Assembly: GCA_964440805.1 (NCBI GenBank)
Contig: CAYTTR010000003.1
Span: 22,888-86,887 of the forward strand
Direction: 5' to 3'
DNA from: an uncultured Eubacteriales bacterium
GTDB taxonomy: Bacteria; Acidobacteriota; Aminicenantia; Aminicenantales; Aminicenantaceae
DNA: 64,000 bases
The notes below the pieces were generated by a model, which searched no databases, was not told where the DNA came from, and worked only from the letters and a program-made list of their open reading frames with translations. The position numbers were made by a program, and so were the translations under genes. This document shows positions 1,607 to 54,996 of the stretch, one piece after another (position 1 is the first letter of the stretch; each line of letters opens with the position of its first letter).

Positions 1607-1625
1607 AAGGGGGACGTTCCCTTTC
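1607..1625. repeat. partial copy of palindromic repeat P (GGGGGACGTTCCC hairpin) overlapping transketolase stop
   Basis: sequence aagggggacgttccctttc; same hairpin core as 8 other loci. Confidence 0.5.
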
Positions 1626-7383: not shown

Positions 7384-7546
7384 GAGAATTCATTCTATAA
7401 CAAATATGGGTACTACCGAAAACAGGGGATGTTAAATTTTAAAGAGTAAAGAGAAGTGTTGATATGTTTATCTATTTTCCAACTAATTTCCCATGGCCGC
7501 TTTGTCACCCTCGATGGATGAAAATTCTCCTTTGTCATTCCTTCAG

Positions 7547-7617
7547 ATGGCGGTTGCTTTTCTCGCCCGTCTCGCAATATCAAGTCCAGATAAACCGGGC
7601 AGACCAGATAGACTAAA
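7547..7617. repeat. composite intergenic repeat (GAG-box and 9-mer array, reverse orientation)
   Basis: cttttctcgcccgtctcgc plus ccagataaaccgggcagaccagatagactaaatagaccgaat; homologous to loci at 17231, 21231, 31870, 41981, 44015, 54691. Confidence 0.6.
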
Positions 7618-7647
7618 TAGACCGAATTGACGGAAAAGAAGAGAAGT

Positions 7648-7776: not shown

Positions 7777-7800
7777 GAGGGGGACGTTCCCCCTTTTACC
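7777..7800. repeat. palindromic repeat P copy (GGGGGACGTTCCCCC followed by TTTT)
   Basis: ggagggggacgttcccccttttacc. Confidence 0.6.
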
Positions 7801-11911: not shown

Positions 11912-11946
11912 AAGGGGACGTTCCCCAAGGTACCACCCCTTCCCAA
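11912..11946. repeat. palindromic repeat P variant (GGGGACGTTCCCC AAGGTACCACCCCTTCCC), plus orientation
   Basis: forms an inverted pair with the copy at 12328-12368. Confidence 0.6.
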
Positions 11947-12028
11947 GATCGAAATTAATATTCAATTTTGGTTTATTAAATTCACATGTTCTTTTCTATT
12001 TTTATTCAAGTAAGGTTGAAAAAATTAA

Positions 12029-12283
12029 GGGCATTAGATGTGCCTTCCGCTCTCCTTCGGCGCTTTTTCCGCCTTCTCTCACCGCTCTTCTCGGCAGCTG
12101 CGTAACTCCGCACCATTGTTCAATAAAAATCACTTTATTCTGTGTTCTGCGTTTATAATAGTCTAACCCATTTTTCCTGAGGCGTGCTCAATACATACTC
12201 GCTGTCCGACAAAGTCGGATTCCCCCGAATCGCAGTTCGAGAAGGCGTGCGCCTCAATGTCGCGGAAGGCACATTTAATGCCC
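12029..12283. mobile_element. TIR-bounded roughly 255-bp element (MITE-like or structured ncRNA), copy B, reverse orientation relative to copy A
   Basis: 22-bp terminal inverted repeats gggcattagatgtgccttccgc / gcggaaggcacatttaatgccc; core is homologous to 24183-24389 (blocks GCGACATTGAGGCGC, GGGAATCCGACTTTGTCGGA, GGAGTTACGCAGCTGCCGAGAAGAGCGGTGAGAGAA, GCGCCGAAG) and carries a roughly 60-nt AT-rich insertion. Confidence 0.55.
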
Positions 12284-12327
12284 TCCAAAAAAACATTTCT
12301 TACAAAAAGGTAAATAACGCCTCTCTT

Positions 12328-12368
12328 GGGGAAGGGGTGGTACCTTGGGGAACGTCCCCCCCTTTTTG
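12328..12368. repeat. palindromic repeat P variant, minus orientation (partner of 11912-11946)
   Basis: gggaaggggtggtaccttggggaacgtcccccccttttt. Confidence 0.6.
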
Positions 12369-17230: not shown

Positions 17231-17366
17231 CTATTCAGTCTGTCTGGTCTATTTCGTCTATTCAGCCTATTCGGTGATTCAATTAAATCAATTGGGCGGG
17301 GCGAGATGAGCGAGAAAGGCGAGAAAAGTAAAAAGCGTTAGTTGCGTTTATTGCGTTAGTTGCGTG
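17231..17366. repeat. composite intergenic repeat (9-mer array, GAG-box GGGCGGGGCGAGATGAGCGAGAAAGGCGAGAAAAG, second array GCGTTAGTTGCGTTTATTGCG)
   Basis: homologous modules at 6 other loci. Confidence 0.6.
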
Positions 17367-17512
17367 TTACCATGTCGTCTGCCTTCAGGCATGTTCTAGT
17401 GATTACAGGACGTCATTTCTATCAGTTGCGGGTAGCGAGGTTGCCTTAGGTAATCAGCTTCTAAAATTTGACTTTTAGGCTAAATCTAAGCATAATCTTT
17501 GGCTGAAGTTCG

Positions 17513-21182: not shown

Positions 21183-21230
21183 TAAATGGCAAATAGTAAA
21201 TTGATTGAACCATCTTGAAATATGTTGACT

Positions 21231-21318
21231 AAACAGACTGAACAAACCGAATAGACGAAATCAACACAACTAACGCTATAAACGCAATTAACGCAATTAA
21301 CGCTTCTCTCGTCTCGCC
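21231..21318. repeat. composite intergenic repeat (arrays and GAG-box, reverse orientation)
   Basis: aaacagactgaacaaaccgaatagacgaaa...aacgcaattaacgcaattaacgcttctctcgtctcgcc. Confidence 0.6.
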
Positions 21319-21352: not shown

Positions 21353-21388
21353 CCAGGGAAAAGGGTGTCCCTTTGGGGAACGTCCCTC
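21353..21388. repeat. palindromic repeat P copy (minus orientation) followed by a T-run; candidate bidirectional terminator between SpoU(+) and HtrA(-)
   Basis: ccagggaaaagggtgtccctttggggaacgtccctc then tttttat. Confidence 0.55.
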
Positions 21389-21449
21389 TTTTTATATGGT
21401 TGGAGAGAGGCACTTAGGCCTCTCCCCCGGAGATGGGAACAAGAGCAGA

Positions 21450-24182: not shown

Positions 24183-24389
24183 ACAATAAGAAATCATCAG
24201 ATATGCCCGGAGCGACATTGAGGCGCTAGTCTTCTCGAGCCGCTATTCGAGGGAATCTGATTTCGTCGGACGGCGAGTGCGCATTAAGCTGACGGAATGG
24301 AGTTACGCAGCCGCCGAGAAGAGCGGTGAGAGAATGGCGAAAAAAGCGCCGAAGTAAAGCGGAGGGCATACCTGATGATTTCTTATTGT
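24183..24389. mobile_element. TIR-bounded roughly 207-bp element (MITE-like or structured ncRNA), copy A
   Basis: 25-bp TIRs cacaataagaaatcatcagatatgccc / gggcatacctgatgatttcttattgt (1 mismatch); core homologous to 12029-12283 with compensatory stem changes. Confidence 0.55.
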
Positions 24390-31823: not shown

Positions 31824-31860
31824 AAGGGGGACGCTCCCCAAAGGGACACCTCTTCCCCTG
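31824..31860. repeat. palindromic repeat P copy (plus orientation)
   Basis: aagggggacgctccccaaagggacacctcttcccctg. Confidence 0.6.
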
Positions 31861-31869
31861 AACAAATTA

Positions 31870-31985
31870 GTTTATTGCGTTTATTGCGTTTATTGCGTTT
31901 ATTGCGTTCATTTAGTTTGTCTGGTTTATCTGGTTTGTCTGGTTTATTTAGTTTAGAAGAAGGGTGAGGCGGGTGAGAAATGATT
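31870..31985. repeat. composite intergenic repeat: 4 x GCGTTTATT, then TAGTTTGTC/TGGTTTATC units, then GAG-like box
   Basis: gtttattgcgtttattgcgtttattgcgtttattgcgttcatttagtttgtctggtttatctggtttgtctggtttatttagttta gaagaagggtgaggcgggtgagaaa. Confidence 0.65.
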
Positions 31986-33685: not shown

Positions 33686-33910
33686 ATGTCATCTACCAGA
33701 AAAAGAGATAATTTTGCCTGGGGATTAGTCCTGGTTATTCTGGGGCTAATTTTCCTGCTCCATAATATTGATATTAAATTATGGGGTTCAGTAGCCCGTC
33801 TCTGGCCTTTGATCCTCATCGTTTGGGGAGCCTGGAAGCTTTACTACGGCCTTCAGGAGAGAAAAGAGCAAAAGGATTCCCTGACAGAAAACAACAGCGA
33901 AGAACAATGA
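33686..33910 (+). CDS. small two-TM membrane protein (LiaI/DUF5668-like)
   Basis: MSSTRKRDNFAWGLVLVILGLIFLLHN...LWPLILIVWGAWKL. Confidence 0.4.
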   Translation: MSSTRKRDNFAWGLVLVILGLIFLLHNIDIKLWGSVARLWPLILIVWGAWKLYYGLQERKEQKDSLTENNSEEQ

Positions 33911-35262
33911 GAGCCCGAGAAGTAATTCTGCTAGCCTTGCTTCTTGCCGGGGGCATTCTGTTTACCCAAATTTATACCGGCAAACTGGATGTAAGCTGGG
34001 GATTTGACGAATTTCCCTTCTGGCACCTTAAAGAGTTCGAATTCGAGGAAAGAGAAATCATCTCACCTCCTCTACCTCCTGAATTGGAATTATTAAACGC
34101 TCACGGCGAGGTGGAGATTGAAGGCACGGATGATGAACAAATCAATATCATCTTTCTTAAAAAGTTCCGGAGAAAAAATCAAGATGAGGCCGCGGCTGAG
34201 GCTGCCGGCCTCCGCCTATTCGCAAGCAAGAGCAAAGAACGCCTGAAGCTTTCCAGCAACAGGGATGAAGTAAGAAAAAAGAACCTGAAGACCTGCTTCA
34301 AAATCCAAGTCCCTTCATCAATGAAGATCAAAGTGGAAAACTCTTATGGCCTGGTCATGGTGCAAAATGTCCGCGATACAGAAATCAGCAACCCTTACGG
34401 CAAAACAATAGTCTCAGACATTAATGGAACTCTGAACCTAACCAATAAATACAAGAATGTAGAAGTCACCGGAGTTTCTTCTTCATGTCAGATAGAAAGC
34501 CATTACTCAAAGGTTTACCTGAAGGATGTAGCGGGAGAAACAAACATCAGTCATTCCTATGGAACCTTGAACCTGGAAAATCTTTCTGCCGGATTGACAC
34601 TCCAAGGAAGACACAGTGTGGTGGAAGGTTTTAAACTTACCGGTCCAAACCAGATTGAAACAACTTATAAAAAAATCCGCCTTGTTGAAATAGGCCCGAC
34701 AAAACTAATTACTCATAATTCCCCGGTTGAAGTTATTCAAGCCGATGGAGATATTTTTATCGAAAACAGCTACGACAGAGTAAGTCTAAAAAAAATAAGG
34801 GGAAATTTAACCGTCAAAGGAAAATACCTTCGGCTCTCCGGTGCTAATATCAGAGGAGATTTCCTGGATATATCATCATCATACAGGGAAATTGAGCTTT
34901 CCCGCTTCTCTGGACAAACAAAAATTCTTCTTTCTCATGGTGATCTCATTCTTGTTCCTGACTCATTAACTGCTCCCCTTGAAATCAATGGAGATTATGT
35001 CAATATCAGCCTGACCTGGCCGGCCGGAGGAAGATATCCTTTGGAAATCCATAACAAAGGGGGAGAAACCAACTGGTTGCTAAAAGAAAAGGCTTCCTTT
35101 GAAACCTTAAATAACACAACTACCCTCAAAGCCTTCAGTCAGGAAAAAACCCAGCCCTCAATATCCATCTCCACCACCTACGGAACCGTTACTATAAGAG
35201 AAGGGGACGTTCCCCAAAGGGACACCCTTTCCCCTGAAGGAAATAGCTTATCGCTTTATTGA
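33907..35262 (+). CDS. DUF4097-type putative adhesin / beta-helical repeat protein with N-terminal TM (YvlB-like)
   Basis: repeated N-x-Y/G-x-I/V-x-V beta-strand units; start ATG at 33907 overlaps the previous stop; the last 13 codons are encoded by repeat P. Confidence 0.5.
   Translation: MRAREVILLALLLAGGILFTQIYTGKLDVSWGFDEFPFWHLKEFEFEEREIISPPLPPELELLNAHGEVEIEGTDDEQINIIFLKKFRRKNQDEAAAEAAGLRLFASKSKERLKLSSNRDEVRKKNLKTCFKIQVPSSMKIKVENSYGLVMVQNVRDTEISNPYGKTIVSDINGTLNLTNKYKNVEVTGVSSSCQIESHYSKVYLKDVAGETNISHSYGTLNLENLSAGLTLQGRHSVVEGFKLTGPNQIETTYKKIRLVEIGPTKLITHNSPVEVIQADGDIFIENSYDRVSLKKIRGNLTVKGKYLRLSGANIRGDFLDISSSYREIELSRFSGQTKILLSHGDLILVPDSLTAPLEINGDYVNISLTWPAGGRYPLEIHNKGGETNWLLKEKASFETLNNTTTLKAFSQEKTQPSISISTTYGTVTIREGDVPQRDTLSPEGNSLSLY
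35200..35240. repeat. palindromic repeat P, best full copy (plus orientation), embedded in the 3' end of the DUF4097 CDS
   Basis: gaaggggacgttccccaaagggacaccctttcccctgaagg. Confidence 0.65.
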
Positions 35263-35854
35263 GTTTCTTTGGTTGATTTAGTTCATTACATTTAGGGCAA
35301 TCATTTACGAGGAGCAGAGTGAAAGTTCTAAGTGGTCCCAACATACTACAAAGCACTTTGTTAAACACCTTGAGAGCCTCGGTTTTAAAGTAAATCTAGA
35401 ACCGATTTCTCTAGCTGCATGAGTTTCATGTTCTTATTTTCAAGCTAATGGTATGATAAAGTCTCAATTATTTCGGTCAATATTGAAAATTTTCCACCAT
35501 TTCAATCTTATTTTTTAAAACGTGATAAAATTAACCTTTCCCTAAAGGTCAACGTATTTTGTTTATTATCAACAGATTTCTTTATTTCCTTTATTATCAA
35601 TTAGTTACAAAAAAGACCGAATCTTGTGCAATCTGCCATATCTCTCAGATTTTACTTAAAGTTAGGGTCCAAAAACTTGGATTTATCCACAAGTTTTCCA
35701 CATTTTTTGTGAATAACTCTGAACATCACTTTTCTTCTCTTTTTCAGGTTCTCCCCTCTGATAAAAGCTTCCCTTTCCCGTCTATATATTTACTCTTTTG
35801 CCTGCATTTTCACAAAAAAAATATCTGTAGACAAAATGTTTCTTTCTGTTCCTC

Positions 35855-37934: not shown

Positions 37935-37974
37935 AGAAGGGACGTTCCCCAAAAGGACACCCTTTTCCCTGGAC
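37935..37974. repeat. palindromic repeat P copy (plus orientation)
   Basis: gagaagggacgttccccaaaaggacacccttttccctggac. Confidence 0.6.
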
Positions 37975-38321
37975 AAATAAACTCTTATTCTTTTCTATTA
38001 GCCTGGATTATTCACGAGTCGAGGTTGCCGTAGGGGTTAGGCTGGGTCGGGGCGAGGCATAAGACACACAGCTTTGATCTCTCCACCGCAAGTACCCTGT
38101 AATAAAACAGATGCGGCAAGATCGACTCTCGCCCAGAGGGTAAAAAAGGCCGATTTTAGATAAGCTTTAATGGCAGAATTTAATAAACTTACTTTTTTTA
38201 TGTAGCCTGAGAGAAAATCTTTTAAGTCATACATAGTATTTGTAATAATTTAAGTACTGGACTTTCTATGAATAGTTCAGGTTAGTAGCATTAAAATAAA
38301 ATTGAAAAATTATTATCACCT

Positions 38322-38355
38322 CTGGAAAGGGTATCCCTTTGGGGAATGCTCCCTT
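38322..38355. repeat. degenerate palindromic repeat P copy (minus orientation), partner of 37935-37974
   Basis: ctggaaagggtatccctttggggaatgctccctt. Confidence 0.5.
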
Positions 38356-41980: not shown

Positions 41981-42222
41981 GTTCGAAGTCTGTTCAGTCT
42001 ATTCGGTTTATCTCGTTTATTTAGTTTGTTTGGTTTATTTAGTTGAAAAAAAAGACGGGATGAGTGATAAGGGCGAGAGGATCGAGGCGGAAAGAAATAG
42101 CTTGTTGCGTTTATCTGGTTTGTCTGGTATAAATGATTTGAAAAAGCCGGGGCGGGGCGAGATGAGTGAGGCCTAATAAGCTACATAAACGACATAAACA
42201 AGATAAACAATAAAATGGGCGA
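41981..42222. repeat. composite intergenic repeat (two arrays, two GAG-boxes, reverse array)
   Basis: agtctgttcagtctattcggtttatctcgtttatttagtttgtttggtttatttag...gggcgagaggatcgaggcgg...gcgtttatctggtttgtctgg...ggggcggggcgagatgagtgagg...cataaacgacataaacaagataaacaa. Confidence 0.6.
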
Positions 42223-44014: not shown

Positions 44015-44196
44015 CGTCTATTCAGTTAAAACAAAATAAGTGAGTGAAACGAACAAAATTAATAGAAAGGGTTGATTGCGTTTATAGAGTTTATTGCGTT
44101 TGTTGCGTTGACTGTTTTCGTAATTAAGAAATTAATTAACCATGACCGACTTAAAACTGCGATAAACACAATAAACGCAATCAACTACTGGTTGCG
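44015..44196. repeat. composite intergenic repeat (array plus inverted array)
   Basis: cgtctattcagtt...ttgattgcgtttatagagtttattgcgtttgttgcgttgactg...gataaacacaataaacgcaatcaac. Confidence 0.5.
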
Positions 44197-50566: not shown

Positions 50567-51346
50567 ATGGCTGAAAAAACAAAGCCTAAAAAAAAGAATG
50601 AAATTCCTGATATTTTTGAAGACTCCTTTTTCATTTCAGAAAAAGGAGGTGCCCGGAGAGCCTTAGCTTTTCCCATTGCCCTCCTTCTTCATGCGACTCT
50701 TGTTGCTGCCATGATTGTTATTCCTCTTCTCAACACCACCAACCTTCCCCAAGTCGAAGTCTACAGCGCCTTTCTCGCCCCTCCTCCACCACCTCCCCCC
50801 CCACCACCTCCTCCGGCCAAGAAAAAAGCCAGATCTGAGACCAGAACCCGAATTAAACCTGTCCAAGCTCAGTCAACTATTCAACCCGGCCAATTAGTAG
50901 CACCGGTGGACATTCCAGAAGAAATTGCCGAAGAAGAACTTTCCGATATTGGCATTGAAGGCGGAGTTGAAGGCGGAGTTGAGGGCGGAGTGGTTGGTGG
51001 AGTTCTTGGTGGAGTAGTCGGCGGAGTCCTGGGTGGAGTGGTTGGTGAAGTTGAAGAAGCTCCTGTCAGAGCTGTTGGTGAGATAAAACCGCCTAAACTT
51101 ATTAAAAAGGTAGAACCAACTTACCCCGAAATCGCCCGCCAGGCACGGGTAGAAGGTGTGGTTATTCTGGAATGTATTACTGACATTTATGGACGAGTTC
51201 AGAATGTCAAGGTTCTTCGCTCCATTCCTCTTCTGGAACAGGCTGCCATTGATGCAGTTCGACAGTGGGTTTATGAGCCGATGATTATCAACGGTCGTCC
51301 CAGGGGAGTTATTTTTACTGTTACTGTTATCTTTAAATTGAAATAG
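50567..51346 (+). CDS. tonB: TonB-family energy transducer
   Basis: N-terminal TM, poly-Pro run, Gly-Gly-Val repeats, C-terminal TonB_C. Confidence 0.75.
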   Translation: MAEKTKPKKKNEIPDIFEDSFFISEKGGARRALAFPIALLLHATLVAAMIVIPLLNTTNLPQVEVYSAFLAPPPPPPPPPPPPAKKKARSETRTRIKPVQAQSTIQPGQLVAPVDIPEEIAEEELSDIGIEGGVEGGVEGGVVGGVLGGVVGGVLGGVVGEVEEAPVRAVGEIKPPKLIKKVEPTYPEIARQARVEGVVILECITDIYGRVQNVKVLRSIPLLEQAAIDAVRQWVYEPMIINGRPRGVIFTVTVIFKLK

Positions 51347-54633: not shown

Positions 54634-54690
54634 AGAACTTATTTTATGAGAAATCAGAGTTTTTAGTCCACCCTATAAAACGGTTTTTTT

Positions 54691-54822
54691 CGTTTATTTA
54701 GTTTATTTCGTTTATTTAGCTTGAAAATACGGAATCCGGTCTGTTCAATCTATTCGGTTAAGTCAACTTATTCTTTAAGTTTAGATTGTGTGAGAAGGGC
54801 GAGACGAGCGAGAAAAGCAGCC
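54691..54822. repeat. composite intergenic repeat (array CGTTTATTTAGTTTATTTCGTTTATTTAG, GGTCTGTTCAATCTATTCGGTT, GAG-box GAGAAGGGCGAGACGAGCGAGAAAAGC)
   Basis: homologous modules at 6 other loci. Confidence 0.6.
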
Positions 54823-54996
54823 GGTATCCGCAGAAATGATAAAGGTACATTTTCATCCATAGCAGGTGGCAAGGCCGCCATGAGAAACCCATTTCTATTT
54901 AAGGCCGATATACCCTCTGGACTTGAGAGCATCAGATTTCTGAGACACCCCGGTCTTTACTCATTCATTTAATTTTGTTATTTTTGGCTGAAAGAA

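Follow-up and report, generated by a model that had tools for sequence, protein, structure and literature searches.

The 64-kb stretch of contig CAYTTR010000003.1 analysed here, which is referred to as a whole as the window, contains copies of a dispersed family of short two-hairpin repeats, termed P. The P family is real, sharp-edged, and non-coding; its copies are polarised toward the 3' ends of genes, form dimers, and occur in genomes of several phyla. As judged from motif and architecture, P appears to be built from hairpins of the same kind as those flanking the genes of TIRYTs, RAYT-like tyrosine transposases, and it is probable that P is a non-autonomous element, resembling repetitive extragenic palindromic (REP) sequences and REPINs, that is moved in trans, or was formerly so moved, by a TIRYT.

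A sequence-only reading of the window had proposed a dispersed repeat family at nine sites in both orientations, and the scans bore this out, with all nine coordinates right to within a few bases. The 32-nt consensus of that reading gave four matches with up to three mismatches (21356-, 31827+, 35203+, and 37938+, the sign giving the strand), as compared with none in 100 shuffled sequences. A Hamming scan of the window with the 26-nt cross-lineage core, GGGGACGTTCCCCAAGGGGACACCCT, gave seven full copies with up to five mismatches (11914+, 12359-, 21387-, 31827+, 35203+, 37938+, and 38353-), where about zero are expected. The two partial sites, 1607-1625 and 7777-7800, contain hairpin 1 only; the hairpin-1 13-mer is matched exactly at 7780 and with a single mismatch at 1610. 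When up to two mismatches were allowed, this 13-mer gave 12 strand matches at nine loci of the window (1.3 expected), of which locus 32047 is the only one outside the nine sites. Approximately 88% of the window is coding, and eight of the nine P sites are located in the remaining 12%, the ninth (35203) being within the last 60 nt of an open reading frame (ORF). The density of P is approximately one copy per 7-9 kb.

A scan of a one-genome-per-species collection with GGGACGYTCCCCAARGG gave at least 106 stretches, and the removal of chance matches in G+C-rich genomes left 88 family copies in 63 loci among the matches listed. These copies share a core of approximately 28 nt, GGGGACGYTCCCCAARGGGACACCCT, the conservation of which is sharp-edged, extending from about -3 to +24 and falling to background beyond. 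The conserved block begins with a T near -3, followed by the core, and its 5' side keeps an A-rich bias only; the 5' context reads C-T-N-G, and a G at -4 is present in only 4 of the 88 copies. The unit of the window genome consists of the core and a lineage-specific tail, ...CCCTTTCCCCTG, and the tail of the earlier consensus was right for this genome, while lying outside the core common to other lineages.

P is composed of two short hairpins, each starting with GGGGAC: hairpin 1 is GGGGA-CGT-TCCCC, and hairpin 2 is (A)AGGG-GACA-CCCT, in which GGGGACAC is nearly invariant. The layout of the unit is a-a'-a-a' (GGGGA, TCCCC, GGGGA, and CCCY), and two folds are therefore possible, namely two side-by-side hairpins or a middle hairpin closed by an outer stem. 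RNA folding, which the sequence-only reading had suggested as a check, predicted either two short hairpins or the alternative fold, according to the P variant. The hairpins of single units are weak (5 bp, about -6 kcal/mol), and the full-unit z-scores were not significant except for the Omnitrophota form, GGGGACGCTCCCCAAAGGGACACTCCCC, which has an extra outer stem and a U-run and folds into one long hairpin that is more stable than shuffled sequences (z = -2.9). Hairpin 2 occurs in two subfamilies related by compensatory change, AAGGG-GACA-CCCTT and AAGGT-ACC-ACCTT; the two coexist in the same genomes, and even a single dimer can contain both. These subfamilies, together with the transitions that keep G-U pairs in the orthologous copy of a relative with 76% amino-acid identity (described below), support genuine base pairing of P. 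In other genomes, hairpin 1 also occurs alone or in tandem beside full units, as at the two partial sites of the window. No unpaired terminal GTAG or CGTC tag was found in P, whose sole CGTC is on the antisense strand, within hairpin 1; P is REP-like but outside both tagged REP superfamilies (GTAG and CGTC).

Copies of P were found in at least 14 Omnitrophota and at least eight Aminicenantes metagenome-assembled genomes (MAGs) and, among the matches listed, in one Desulfaltia MAG, several Planctomycetia MAGs, and some MAGs labelled 'Eubacteriales'. Many MAGs that bear the labels Omnitrophota, Aminicenantes, Desulfobacterota, and Planctomycetota contain the core. The window itself is syntenic with MAGs labelled Candidatus Aminicenantes at 65-68% identity, and its HtrA homologues bear the same label; its lineage is isolated, the closest HtrA homologue being 76% identical and the next 57%. 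The core had no exact match in 2.9 million viral contigs, and a phage origin was rejected. Rfam gave no family around the P copies at the gathering score or at E ≤ 5, and a known RNA family was likewise rejected. A literature search with the P sequence returned one unrelated match only, and no protein family recurs beside P across the 63 loci among the matches listed.

The 'Eubacteriales' labels are doubtful: the 'uncultured Eubacteriales' contig L002 is almost the same locus as L072 (Candidatus Desulfaltia), and the 'Eubacteriales' MAG contigs L089, L092, and L102 have non-coding DNA in common with the Aminicenantes-like window.

The copy at 21353-21388 has an orthologous counterpart, which is kept downstream of HtrA in the relative with 76% amino-acid identity (L108) in a decayed form, changed by transitions that retain G-U pairs, and unrelated genomes hold consensus copies. 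A decayed ortholog together with consensus copies in unrelated genomes is the pattern expected of the continued production of new copies. The comparison with empty sites gave no usable case: the syntenic Aminicenantes locus is too diverged, the metagenome collection contains no relatives of ORF 33781-35262, and the nearest HtrA homologue retains its P copy.

The position of P relative to genes was assessed over 138 copies, with the GGGGACG end defined as the head. In 18 single and 25 paired copies, the head is placed between -60 and +25 nt from the stop codon that ends the upstream gene on the same strand, whereas only 4 single and 2 paired copies have their tail this near to a convergent stop codon. 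A gene start is equally near on the tail side in 4 single copies and no paired copy, and a divergent gene start lies within 25 nt of the head in 12 copies. The head is often located 0-20 nt past the stop codon of the gene that precedes it on the same strand, or past a tRNA, and a TAG or TGA often overlaps or adjoins the first G of P; the distance to the downstream ORF is variable. Three of the seven full copies in the window (21387, 35203, and 38353) are clearly close to the 3' end of an upstream gene. Among them, the copy 38353- is in the sense orientation and starts 9 nt past the 3' end of tRNA-Arg(cct), indicating that the gene-end placement rule is independent of translation. ORFs that run into P use all three frames (9, 7, and 12 cases), which rules out a coding motif or a C-terminal tag.

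Inverted pairs of P are always arranged with their heads outward. The gap between the 26-nt cores ranges from approximately 7 to 290 nt, in most cases less than 130 nt, and the paired arms often carry a few private extra complementary bases. At 42 heads-outward dimers, no target-site duplication exceeded 4 nt; 28 of these dimers have none, and 13 have only 2-3 nt. In one Omnitrophota MAG (L010/L022), the dimer forms a unit of approximately 127 nt with a conserved interior, at least two of which are present in 8 kb. Any 8-kb stretch contains at most three exact pattern matches, and up to five copies when mismatches are allowed. A CRISPR array was ruled out by the mixed orientations, the irregular spacing, and the absence of arrays; integron attC sites by the absence of a cassette context, the neighbours being housekeeping genes; and an autonomous element between distant inverted copies (L059 and L027) by the presence of only housekeeping genes inside.

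The two wide inverted pairs of the window, 11914+/12359- and 37938+/38353-, had been noted for their resemblance to MITEs (miniature transposable elements with inverted repeats). The pairs are real, but the MITE likeness did not hold, the two interiors being unrelated. For the first pair, the arms are 100% complementary over 31 nt and belong to the rarer hairpin-2 subfamily, so that they are copies of each other. Its 384-nt interior (11947-12327) carries a copy of a different repeat of approximately 250 nt, so that this pair looks like a P dimer with an invaded spacer. For the second pair, the arms are unlike each other, the interior (37975-38321) is unrelated to that of the first pair, and part of it is conserved in two other MAG loci. 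Overall, the two wide pairs look like REP dimers with enlarged spacers, and neither is a MITE with a family-wide interior.

The repeat found in the first interior, designated Q, is present at 12020-12290 and, on the opposite strand, at 24183-24389. It is approximately 210-270 nt long, with 45-nt inverted ends that are 78% complementary, and the two copies agree at 91% identity over 46 nt of their core; it has no Rfam match. The copy at 24183-24389 is without P arms, and the copy inside the 11914/12359 dimer has an extra insert of 67 nt. In the second interior, the segment 38002-38153 is non-coding and located between tRNA-Arg(cct) and a tetratricopeptide repeat gene. It is 70% identical to L089 1229-1362 and, over 32 nt, 94% identical to L092 4766-4797, with no Rfam match, and could be a conserved small RNA.

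T-runs had been noted after some copies, which were proposed as possible terminators. The T-runs are present, but they are located 3' of the antisense hairpin 1, on the head side. Terminator-like scores for hairpin 1 followed by a T-run were obtained at 7779+, 12347+, 21375+, and 35215-; for the three full copies, the terminator-like strand is the antisense strand, and 7779+ is a solo hairpin. The terminator scan yields 1.6 to 1.7 times its own shuffled expectation and is weak evidence. Of 135 copies, 27% carry a T-run behind the antisense head, whether they are single or paired, and 7% carry one behind the sense tail, the background being 8%. A terminator role is thus plausible for a minority of copies, in the antisense-head direction. 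Where a dimer separates convergent genes, the transcript from either side would run through a long inverted repeat and, in the T-run cases, a U-run after it.

TIRYTs are RAYT-like genes flanked by inverted repeats other than those of the RAYTs; among these repeats, some have the motif GGGGWSAS in common, some are termed 'double palindromic', and some constitute dispersed families, only some TIRYT hosts having repeat families (PMC3733652). Hairpin 2 of P, with GGGGACAC, fits the GGGGWSAS motif. Six TIRYT sequences were rebuilt from the supplementary alignment of PMC3733652, aligned, and used to scan the metagenome collection; 577 of 600 stretches encode relatives, and 80 loci were kept. For the 44 loci with usable flanks, most of the genes are bracketed by heads-outward inverted repeats, usually approximately 40-130 nt upstream and up to approximately 70 nt downstream of the gene, and GGGGAC[AG]C, or a sequence close to it, is present in the majority of these repeats. 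In addition, GGGGACAC occurs 77 times in the 80 loci, as compared with 9.8 expected.

The flanking repeats resemble both hairpins of P. One repeat type reads TCYGGGGACACCATACTTA; the hairpin AAAGGGGACGCTACCCTTT and the sequence GGGGACGCTTCCC are both close to hairpin 1, and the repeat ATTAGGGACACTCCCC is close to the Omnitrophota hairpin 2. One locus (L136) carries tandem GGGGACACCCTT units that are identical to hairpin 2, and another (L187) carries a double hairpin. The hairpin-2 11-mer has one exact match in the flanks, and other flanking hairpins differ from the 12-13-mers by a single mismatch or indel. In six samples, a TIRYT to which NCBI gives the name Candidatus Omnitrophica lies between housekeeping genes; inverted copies of AGGGACACTTCCCATATT (GGGACACTTCCC), which differ at one position from the Omnitrophota hairpin 2 of P, flank this Omnitrophota-labelled TIRYT. 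Furthermore, an identical 224-aa TIRYT (P0335) with the same inverted GGGACACTT(T/C)CC repeats was found in two contexts (L199/L200 and L201), one of which is among integrase-like gene fragments, so that this unit is mobile as a whole. Thus the family, which the sequence-only reading could not assign to a named repeat, can now be linked to the GGGGWSAS-type hairpins flanking TIRYT genes. We infer this link from motif and architecture, and not via a P-flanked gene in a P-rich genome.

If P is moved by a TIRYT, its hairpins would be the recognition structures of a subgroup of HUH/Y1 tyrosine transposases (IS200/IS605 superfamily, PF01797), the RAYT-like TIRYTs. A chromosomal TIRYT, probably present in a single copy, would bind P hairpins extruded in single-stranded DNA and would cut and rejoin beside them, by which single units or heads-outward dimers would be copied to new sites. 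The copies would persist mainly just downstream of genes, where they would do little harm. P copies located after genes would be transcribed as 3'-end hairpins, and the approximate quarter of them with an antisense-head T-run could stop incoming transcripts.

Several results weigh against this reading. The full two-hairpin P is absent from all 80 TIRYT loci, homologue searches for a P-flanked TIRYT gave only flanks that are related, and not identical, to P, and the TIRYT loci with 10-kb flanks contain no dispersed copies of their own repeats, in agreement with the published remark on TIRYT hosts (PMC3733652). No Y1 transposase was found in the window or in approximately 0.9 Mb of P loci when these were searched by tblastn and phmmer with E. 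coli RayT and with a hidden Markov model built from the published RAYT/TIRYT alignment; with one gene expected per genome, a sample of this size is far too small to be informative. The spacers of the Aminicenantes dimers are unique and not conserved, suggesting that most dimers are not copied as units, and insertion polymorphism is not demonstrable, the nearest relative being too distant. With regard to the structure, the pair counts fit both folds, the arms being repeats of each other, so that the two folds are inseparable, and the counts of G-U and A-C (15 and 10) do not differ significantly for the folding strand. Some of the taxon labels of the MAGs are also unreliable.

Alternatively, P might be a selected and immobile host signal at RNA 3' ends, such as a terminator, an exonuclease stabiliser, or a processing site, recognised by a conserved RNA-binding protein, with the similarity to TIRYT repeats being incidental; we regard this as unlikely. 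It would account for the strong polar placement in the sense orientation 0-20 nt past stop codons and past a tRNA, seen even for single copies (18 versus 4), for the copy past HtrA that is kept across 76% amino-acid identity with its pairing held through G-U pairs, for the antisense-head T-runs (27% versus 8% background), and for the Omnitrophota form, a single long hairpin followed by U's (z = -2.9). However, near-identity over 25 nt across phyla with sharp edges needs copying rather than site-by-site selection, and ORFs that enter P and end in it look like the outcome of insertion. Moreover, a sense-strand U-tract is generally lacking (7%), the 5-bp hairpins are weak with unit z-scores that are not significant, no Rfam family is matched, and the same hairpins flank transposase genes. 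A bolder form of the mobile reading seems distinctly improbable when its two parts are taken jointly: the approximately 28-nt P and a TIRYT partner would move among uncultivated Omnitrophota, Aminicenantes, Desulfobacterota, and Planctomycetota as an inter-phylum REPIN-like replicator, and, 0-20 nt after stop codons, the terminating ribosome would cover the first arm and flip the a-a'-a-a' fold, acting as a two-state RNA switch. If true, the switch would link transcript fate to translation termination.

The common heads-outward pairs and the Omnitrophota unit of approximately 127 nt, with its conserved interior and at least two copies in 8 kb, would also be compatible with a MITE origin, in which a conventional DDE-type insertion sequence (IS) gave rise to the MITE, the P arms are its terminal inverted repeats, and the single copies are solo ends left by deletions. 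This is highly improbable, given the lack of target-site duplication at 42 dimers, the unique interiors in Aminicenantes and in the window, the lack of a transposase between distant inverted copies, and the lack of a protein family recurring beside the 63 loci; in addition, each arm is itself palindromic and is found alone or as tandem hairpin-1 units, which fits a hairpin-recognising Y1 enzyme better than a DDE enzyme. As a further alternative, P could act as double-stranded DNA, either as a site bound by gyrase, a nucleoid protein, or another chromosomal protein, or as a DNA uptake signal, with the specificity of the protein keeping the sequence constant. E. coli BIMEs bind gyrase at the ends of transcription units, where P is also located, the sequence of P is more strongly conserved than its structure, and the direct GGGGAC-N9-GGGGAC arrangement resembles two adjacent binding sites. 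Nevertheless, a double-stranded site leaves the origin of the identical copies and of the compensatory hairpin-2 subfamilies unexplained, and an orientation bias relative to the upstream gene is not expected of a symmetric chromosomal role, so that it can be given very little credence. TIRYT-mediated movement in trans is the explanation that we favour.

Features of the P family and of the 9-nt tandem arrays in the window (the last array is in the relative L108)
Feature	Position	Strand	Remarks
Solo hairpin-1 unit, GGGGGACGTTCCCT	1607-1625	+	13-mer with one mismatch; outside ORFs
Solo hairpin-1 unit, exact GGGGACGTTCCCC, then CTTTTACC	7777-7800	+	Terminator-like score, + strand
Full P, hairpin-2 subfamily AAGGTACCACC	11912-11946	+	Left arm of heads-outward dimer
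Full P	12328-12361	-	Right arm of the 11912 dimer; antisense hairpin 1 then CCCTTTTTG on + strand
Full P	21353-21388	-	Sense orientation, 63 nt past the stop of a minus-strand HtrA-like gene
Full P	31824-31860	+	Divergent intergenic region upstream of an extracytoplasmic function (ECF) sigma factor gene
Full P, best consensus match	35200-35240	+	Sense, inside the last 60 nt of ORF 33781-35262
Full P	37935-37974	+	Left arm of second heads-outward pair
Diverged P (5 mismatches)	38322-38355	-	Right arm of second pair
9-nt array	7586-7635	-	
9-nt array	17322-17384		
9-nt array	21228-21303	-	
9-nt array	31864-31955		
9-nt array	35256-35310		
9-nt array	41982-42053		
9-nt array	42102-42140		
9-nt array	42183-42210	-	
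9-nt array	44047-44127		
9-nt array	44159-44187	-	
9-nt array	54668-54730		
9-nt array	L108 2990-3080		

The genes flanking P in the window are housekeeping genes, including those for a transketolase-like enzyme, elongation factor G, HtrA, a SpoU methylase, and an ECF sigma factor, and the window contains three tRNAs. The first solo unit directly adjoins the stop codon (1624-1626) of the minus-strand transketolase-like gene, and the second is located between tRNA-Arg(ccg) and an aminotransferase-like gene. The copy past HtrA lies between convergent genes, the copy upstream of the sigma factor gene is directly followed by a 9-nt tandem array, and the copy in ORF 33781-35262 encodes the residues GDVPQRDTLSP at the end of that ORF.

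The 9-nt arrays constitute a second dispersed family, in which a 9-nt unit (GTTTATTGC, GTTTATYTR or GTCTATTCR) is repeated in tandem 4-10 times in intergenic regions with a period that differs from the DNA helical repeat. Three of them begin within 45 nt of a P tail (21387-, 31827+, and 35203+), and the array downstream of HtrA is conserved in the relative with 76% identity. A G-rich box, GGGCGGGGCGAGATGAGCGAG or variants, is located beside the arrays at 17294-17314, 42066-42086, 42150-42170, and 54792-54812, with weaker boxes at about 21300 (-) and 7560 (-), and the two seem to be parts of one composite module that recurs. A sequence of approximately 89 nt, 80% identical between 7487-7575 (-) and 54799-54887 (+), directly follows array and box at both places; it could be a small RNA or a leader, and its sole Rfam match is D12-methyl, whose 19 bits fall well short of the gathering score of 57. 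A strong hairpin, GGGGGAGAGGC-CTAAGT-GCCTCTCTCC, is located at about 21400-21430 on the minus strand, between the HtrA stop codon and the neighbouring P copy, and is conserved in position in the same relative (L108 2860-2890). Finally, ORF 50567-51346 contains, at 50955-51054, tandem repeats that stay in frame (12, 24, and 36 nt; unit TTGAAGGCGGAG) and indicate a repetitive protein segment.

The link between P and the TIRYTs provides a concrete candidate enzyme-substrate pair for a poorly understood transposase group, and the conserved GGGGAC hairpin of the TIRYTs is suggested as the reason that P looks alike in distant hosts. In genomes in which terminator prediction is difficult, P is a marker of gene 3' ends. 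The repeats also break assemblies and lengthen ORF calls at gene ends, and their masking is advised for such MAGs.

Among known systems, the ends of IS200/IS605 elements are similar to P in that short subterminal hairpins serve an HUH/Y1 enzyme in single-stranded DNA and no target-site duplication arises. Those ends are, however, same-strand hairpins, whereas P dimers and TIRYT flanks are true inverted repeats, and no TnpB or TnpA gene is present inside P dimers.

The sequence-only reading had described the family as REP/BIME-like, and P fits the published description of REPs in being short, palindromic, and extragenic, in occurring in both orientations and as inverted dimers, and in lying at gene 3' ends (PMC3733652). 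REPs are palindromic units of 20-40 bp, mostly between convergent or tandem genes, at less than 20 bp from the 3' end of the upstream ORF and at a variable distance from the next ORF; their termini often give a TAG stop codon, their dimers have spacers of 20-100 bp, and some copies are inside ORF ends (PMC3733652). P agrees with this description on every point. It is similar to REPs, including the BIMEs of E. coli and the SMAGs of Stenotrophomonas, in size, in its extragenic copies in both orientations, and in its gene-end position, as well as in the TAG at the terminus, the inverted dimers, the copies at ORF ends, and the subfamilies with compensatory stem changes. It differs from them in having no unpaired GTAG/CGTC tag, in having two hairpins in the layout a-a'-a-a' instead of one, and in having one consensus across phyla without cultivated members.

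The terminal inverted repeats (TIRs) of 'TIRtrons', which include 'double palindromic' forms and form dimers and clusters like REPs (PMC3733652), share with P the GGGGWSAS motif of hairpin 2, and hairpins nearly identical to those of P flank TIRYT genes with their heads outward in the 80 metagenomic loci and in the Omnitrophota-labelled locus. In contrast, the combination of hairpin 1 and hairpin 2 is present beside no TIRYT among the 80 loci, and TIR repeat families are rare and 'moderately abundant' (PMC3733652), whereas P is denser.

For the REPIN-RAYT system (PMC3116915, PMC5581495), the likeness to P lies in two inverted arms that can fold into one long hairpin and in a non-autonomous element that is presumably mobilised by a domesticated Y1 transposase present in a single copy, and the Omnitrophota dimer unit with its conserved spacer looks like a REPIN. 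The differences are that most P dimers have unique spacers and are thus not replicated as units, and that REPIN-RAYT families are lineage-specific and vertically inherited (PMC3116915, PMC5581495), whereas the P consensus spans phyla. In addition, the candidate enzyme of P is of the TIRYT type, and not of RAYT group 2 or 3. To our knowledge, REPs and their tyrosine transposases have been studied almost only in Proteobacteria, and REP families are thought to be lineage-specific and vertically inherited. The near-identical consensus of P across several uncultivated phyla is a feature that a specialist might not expect.

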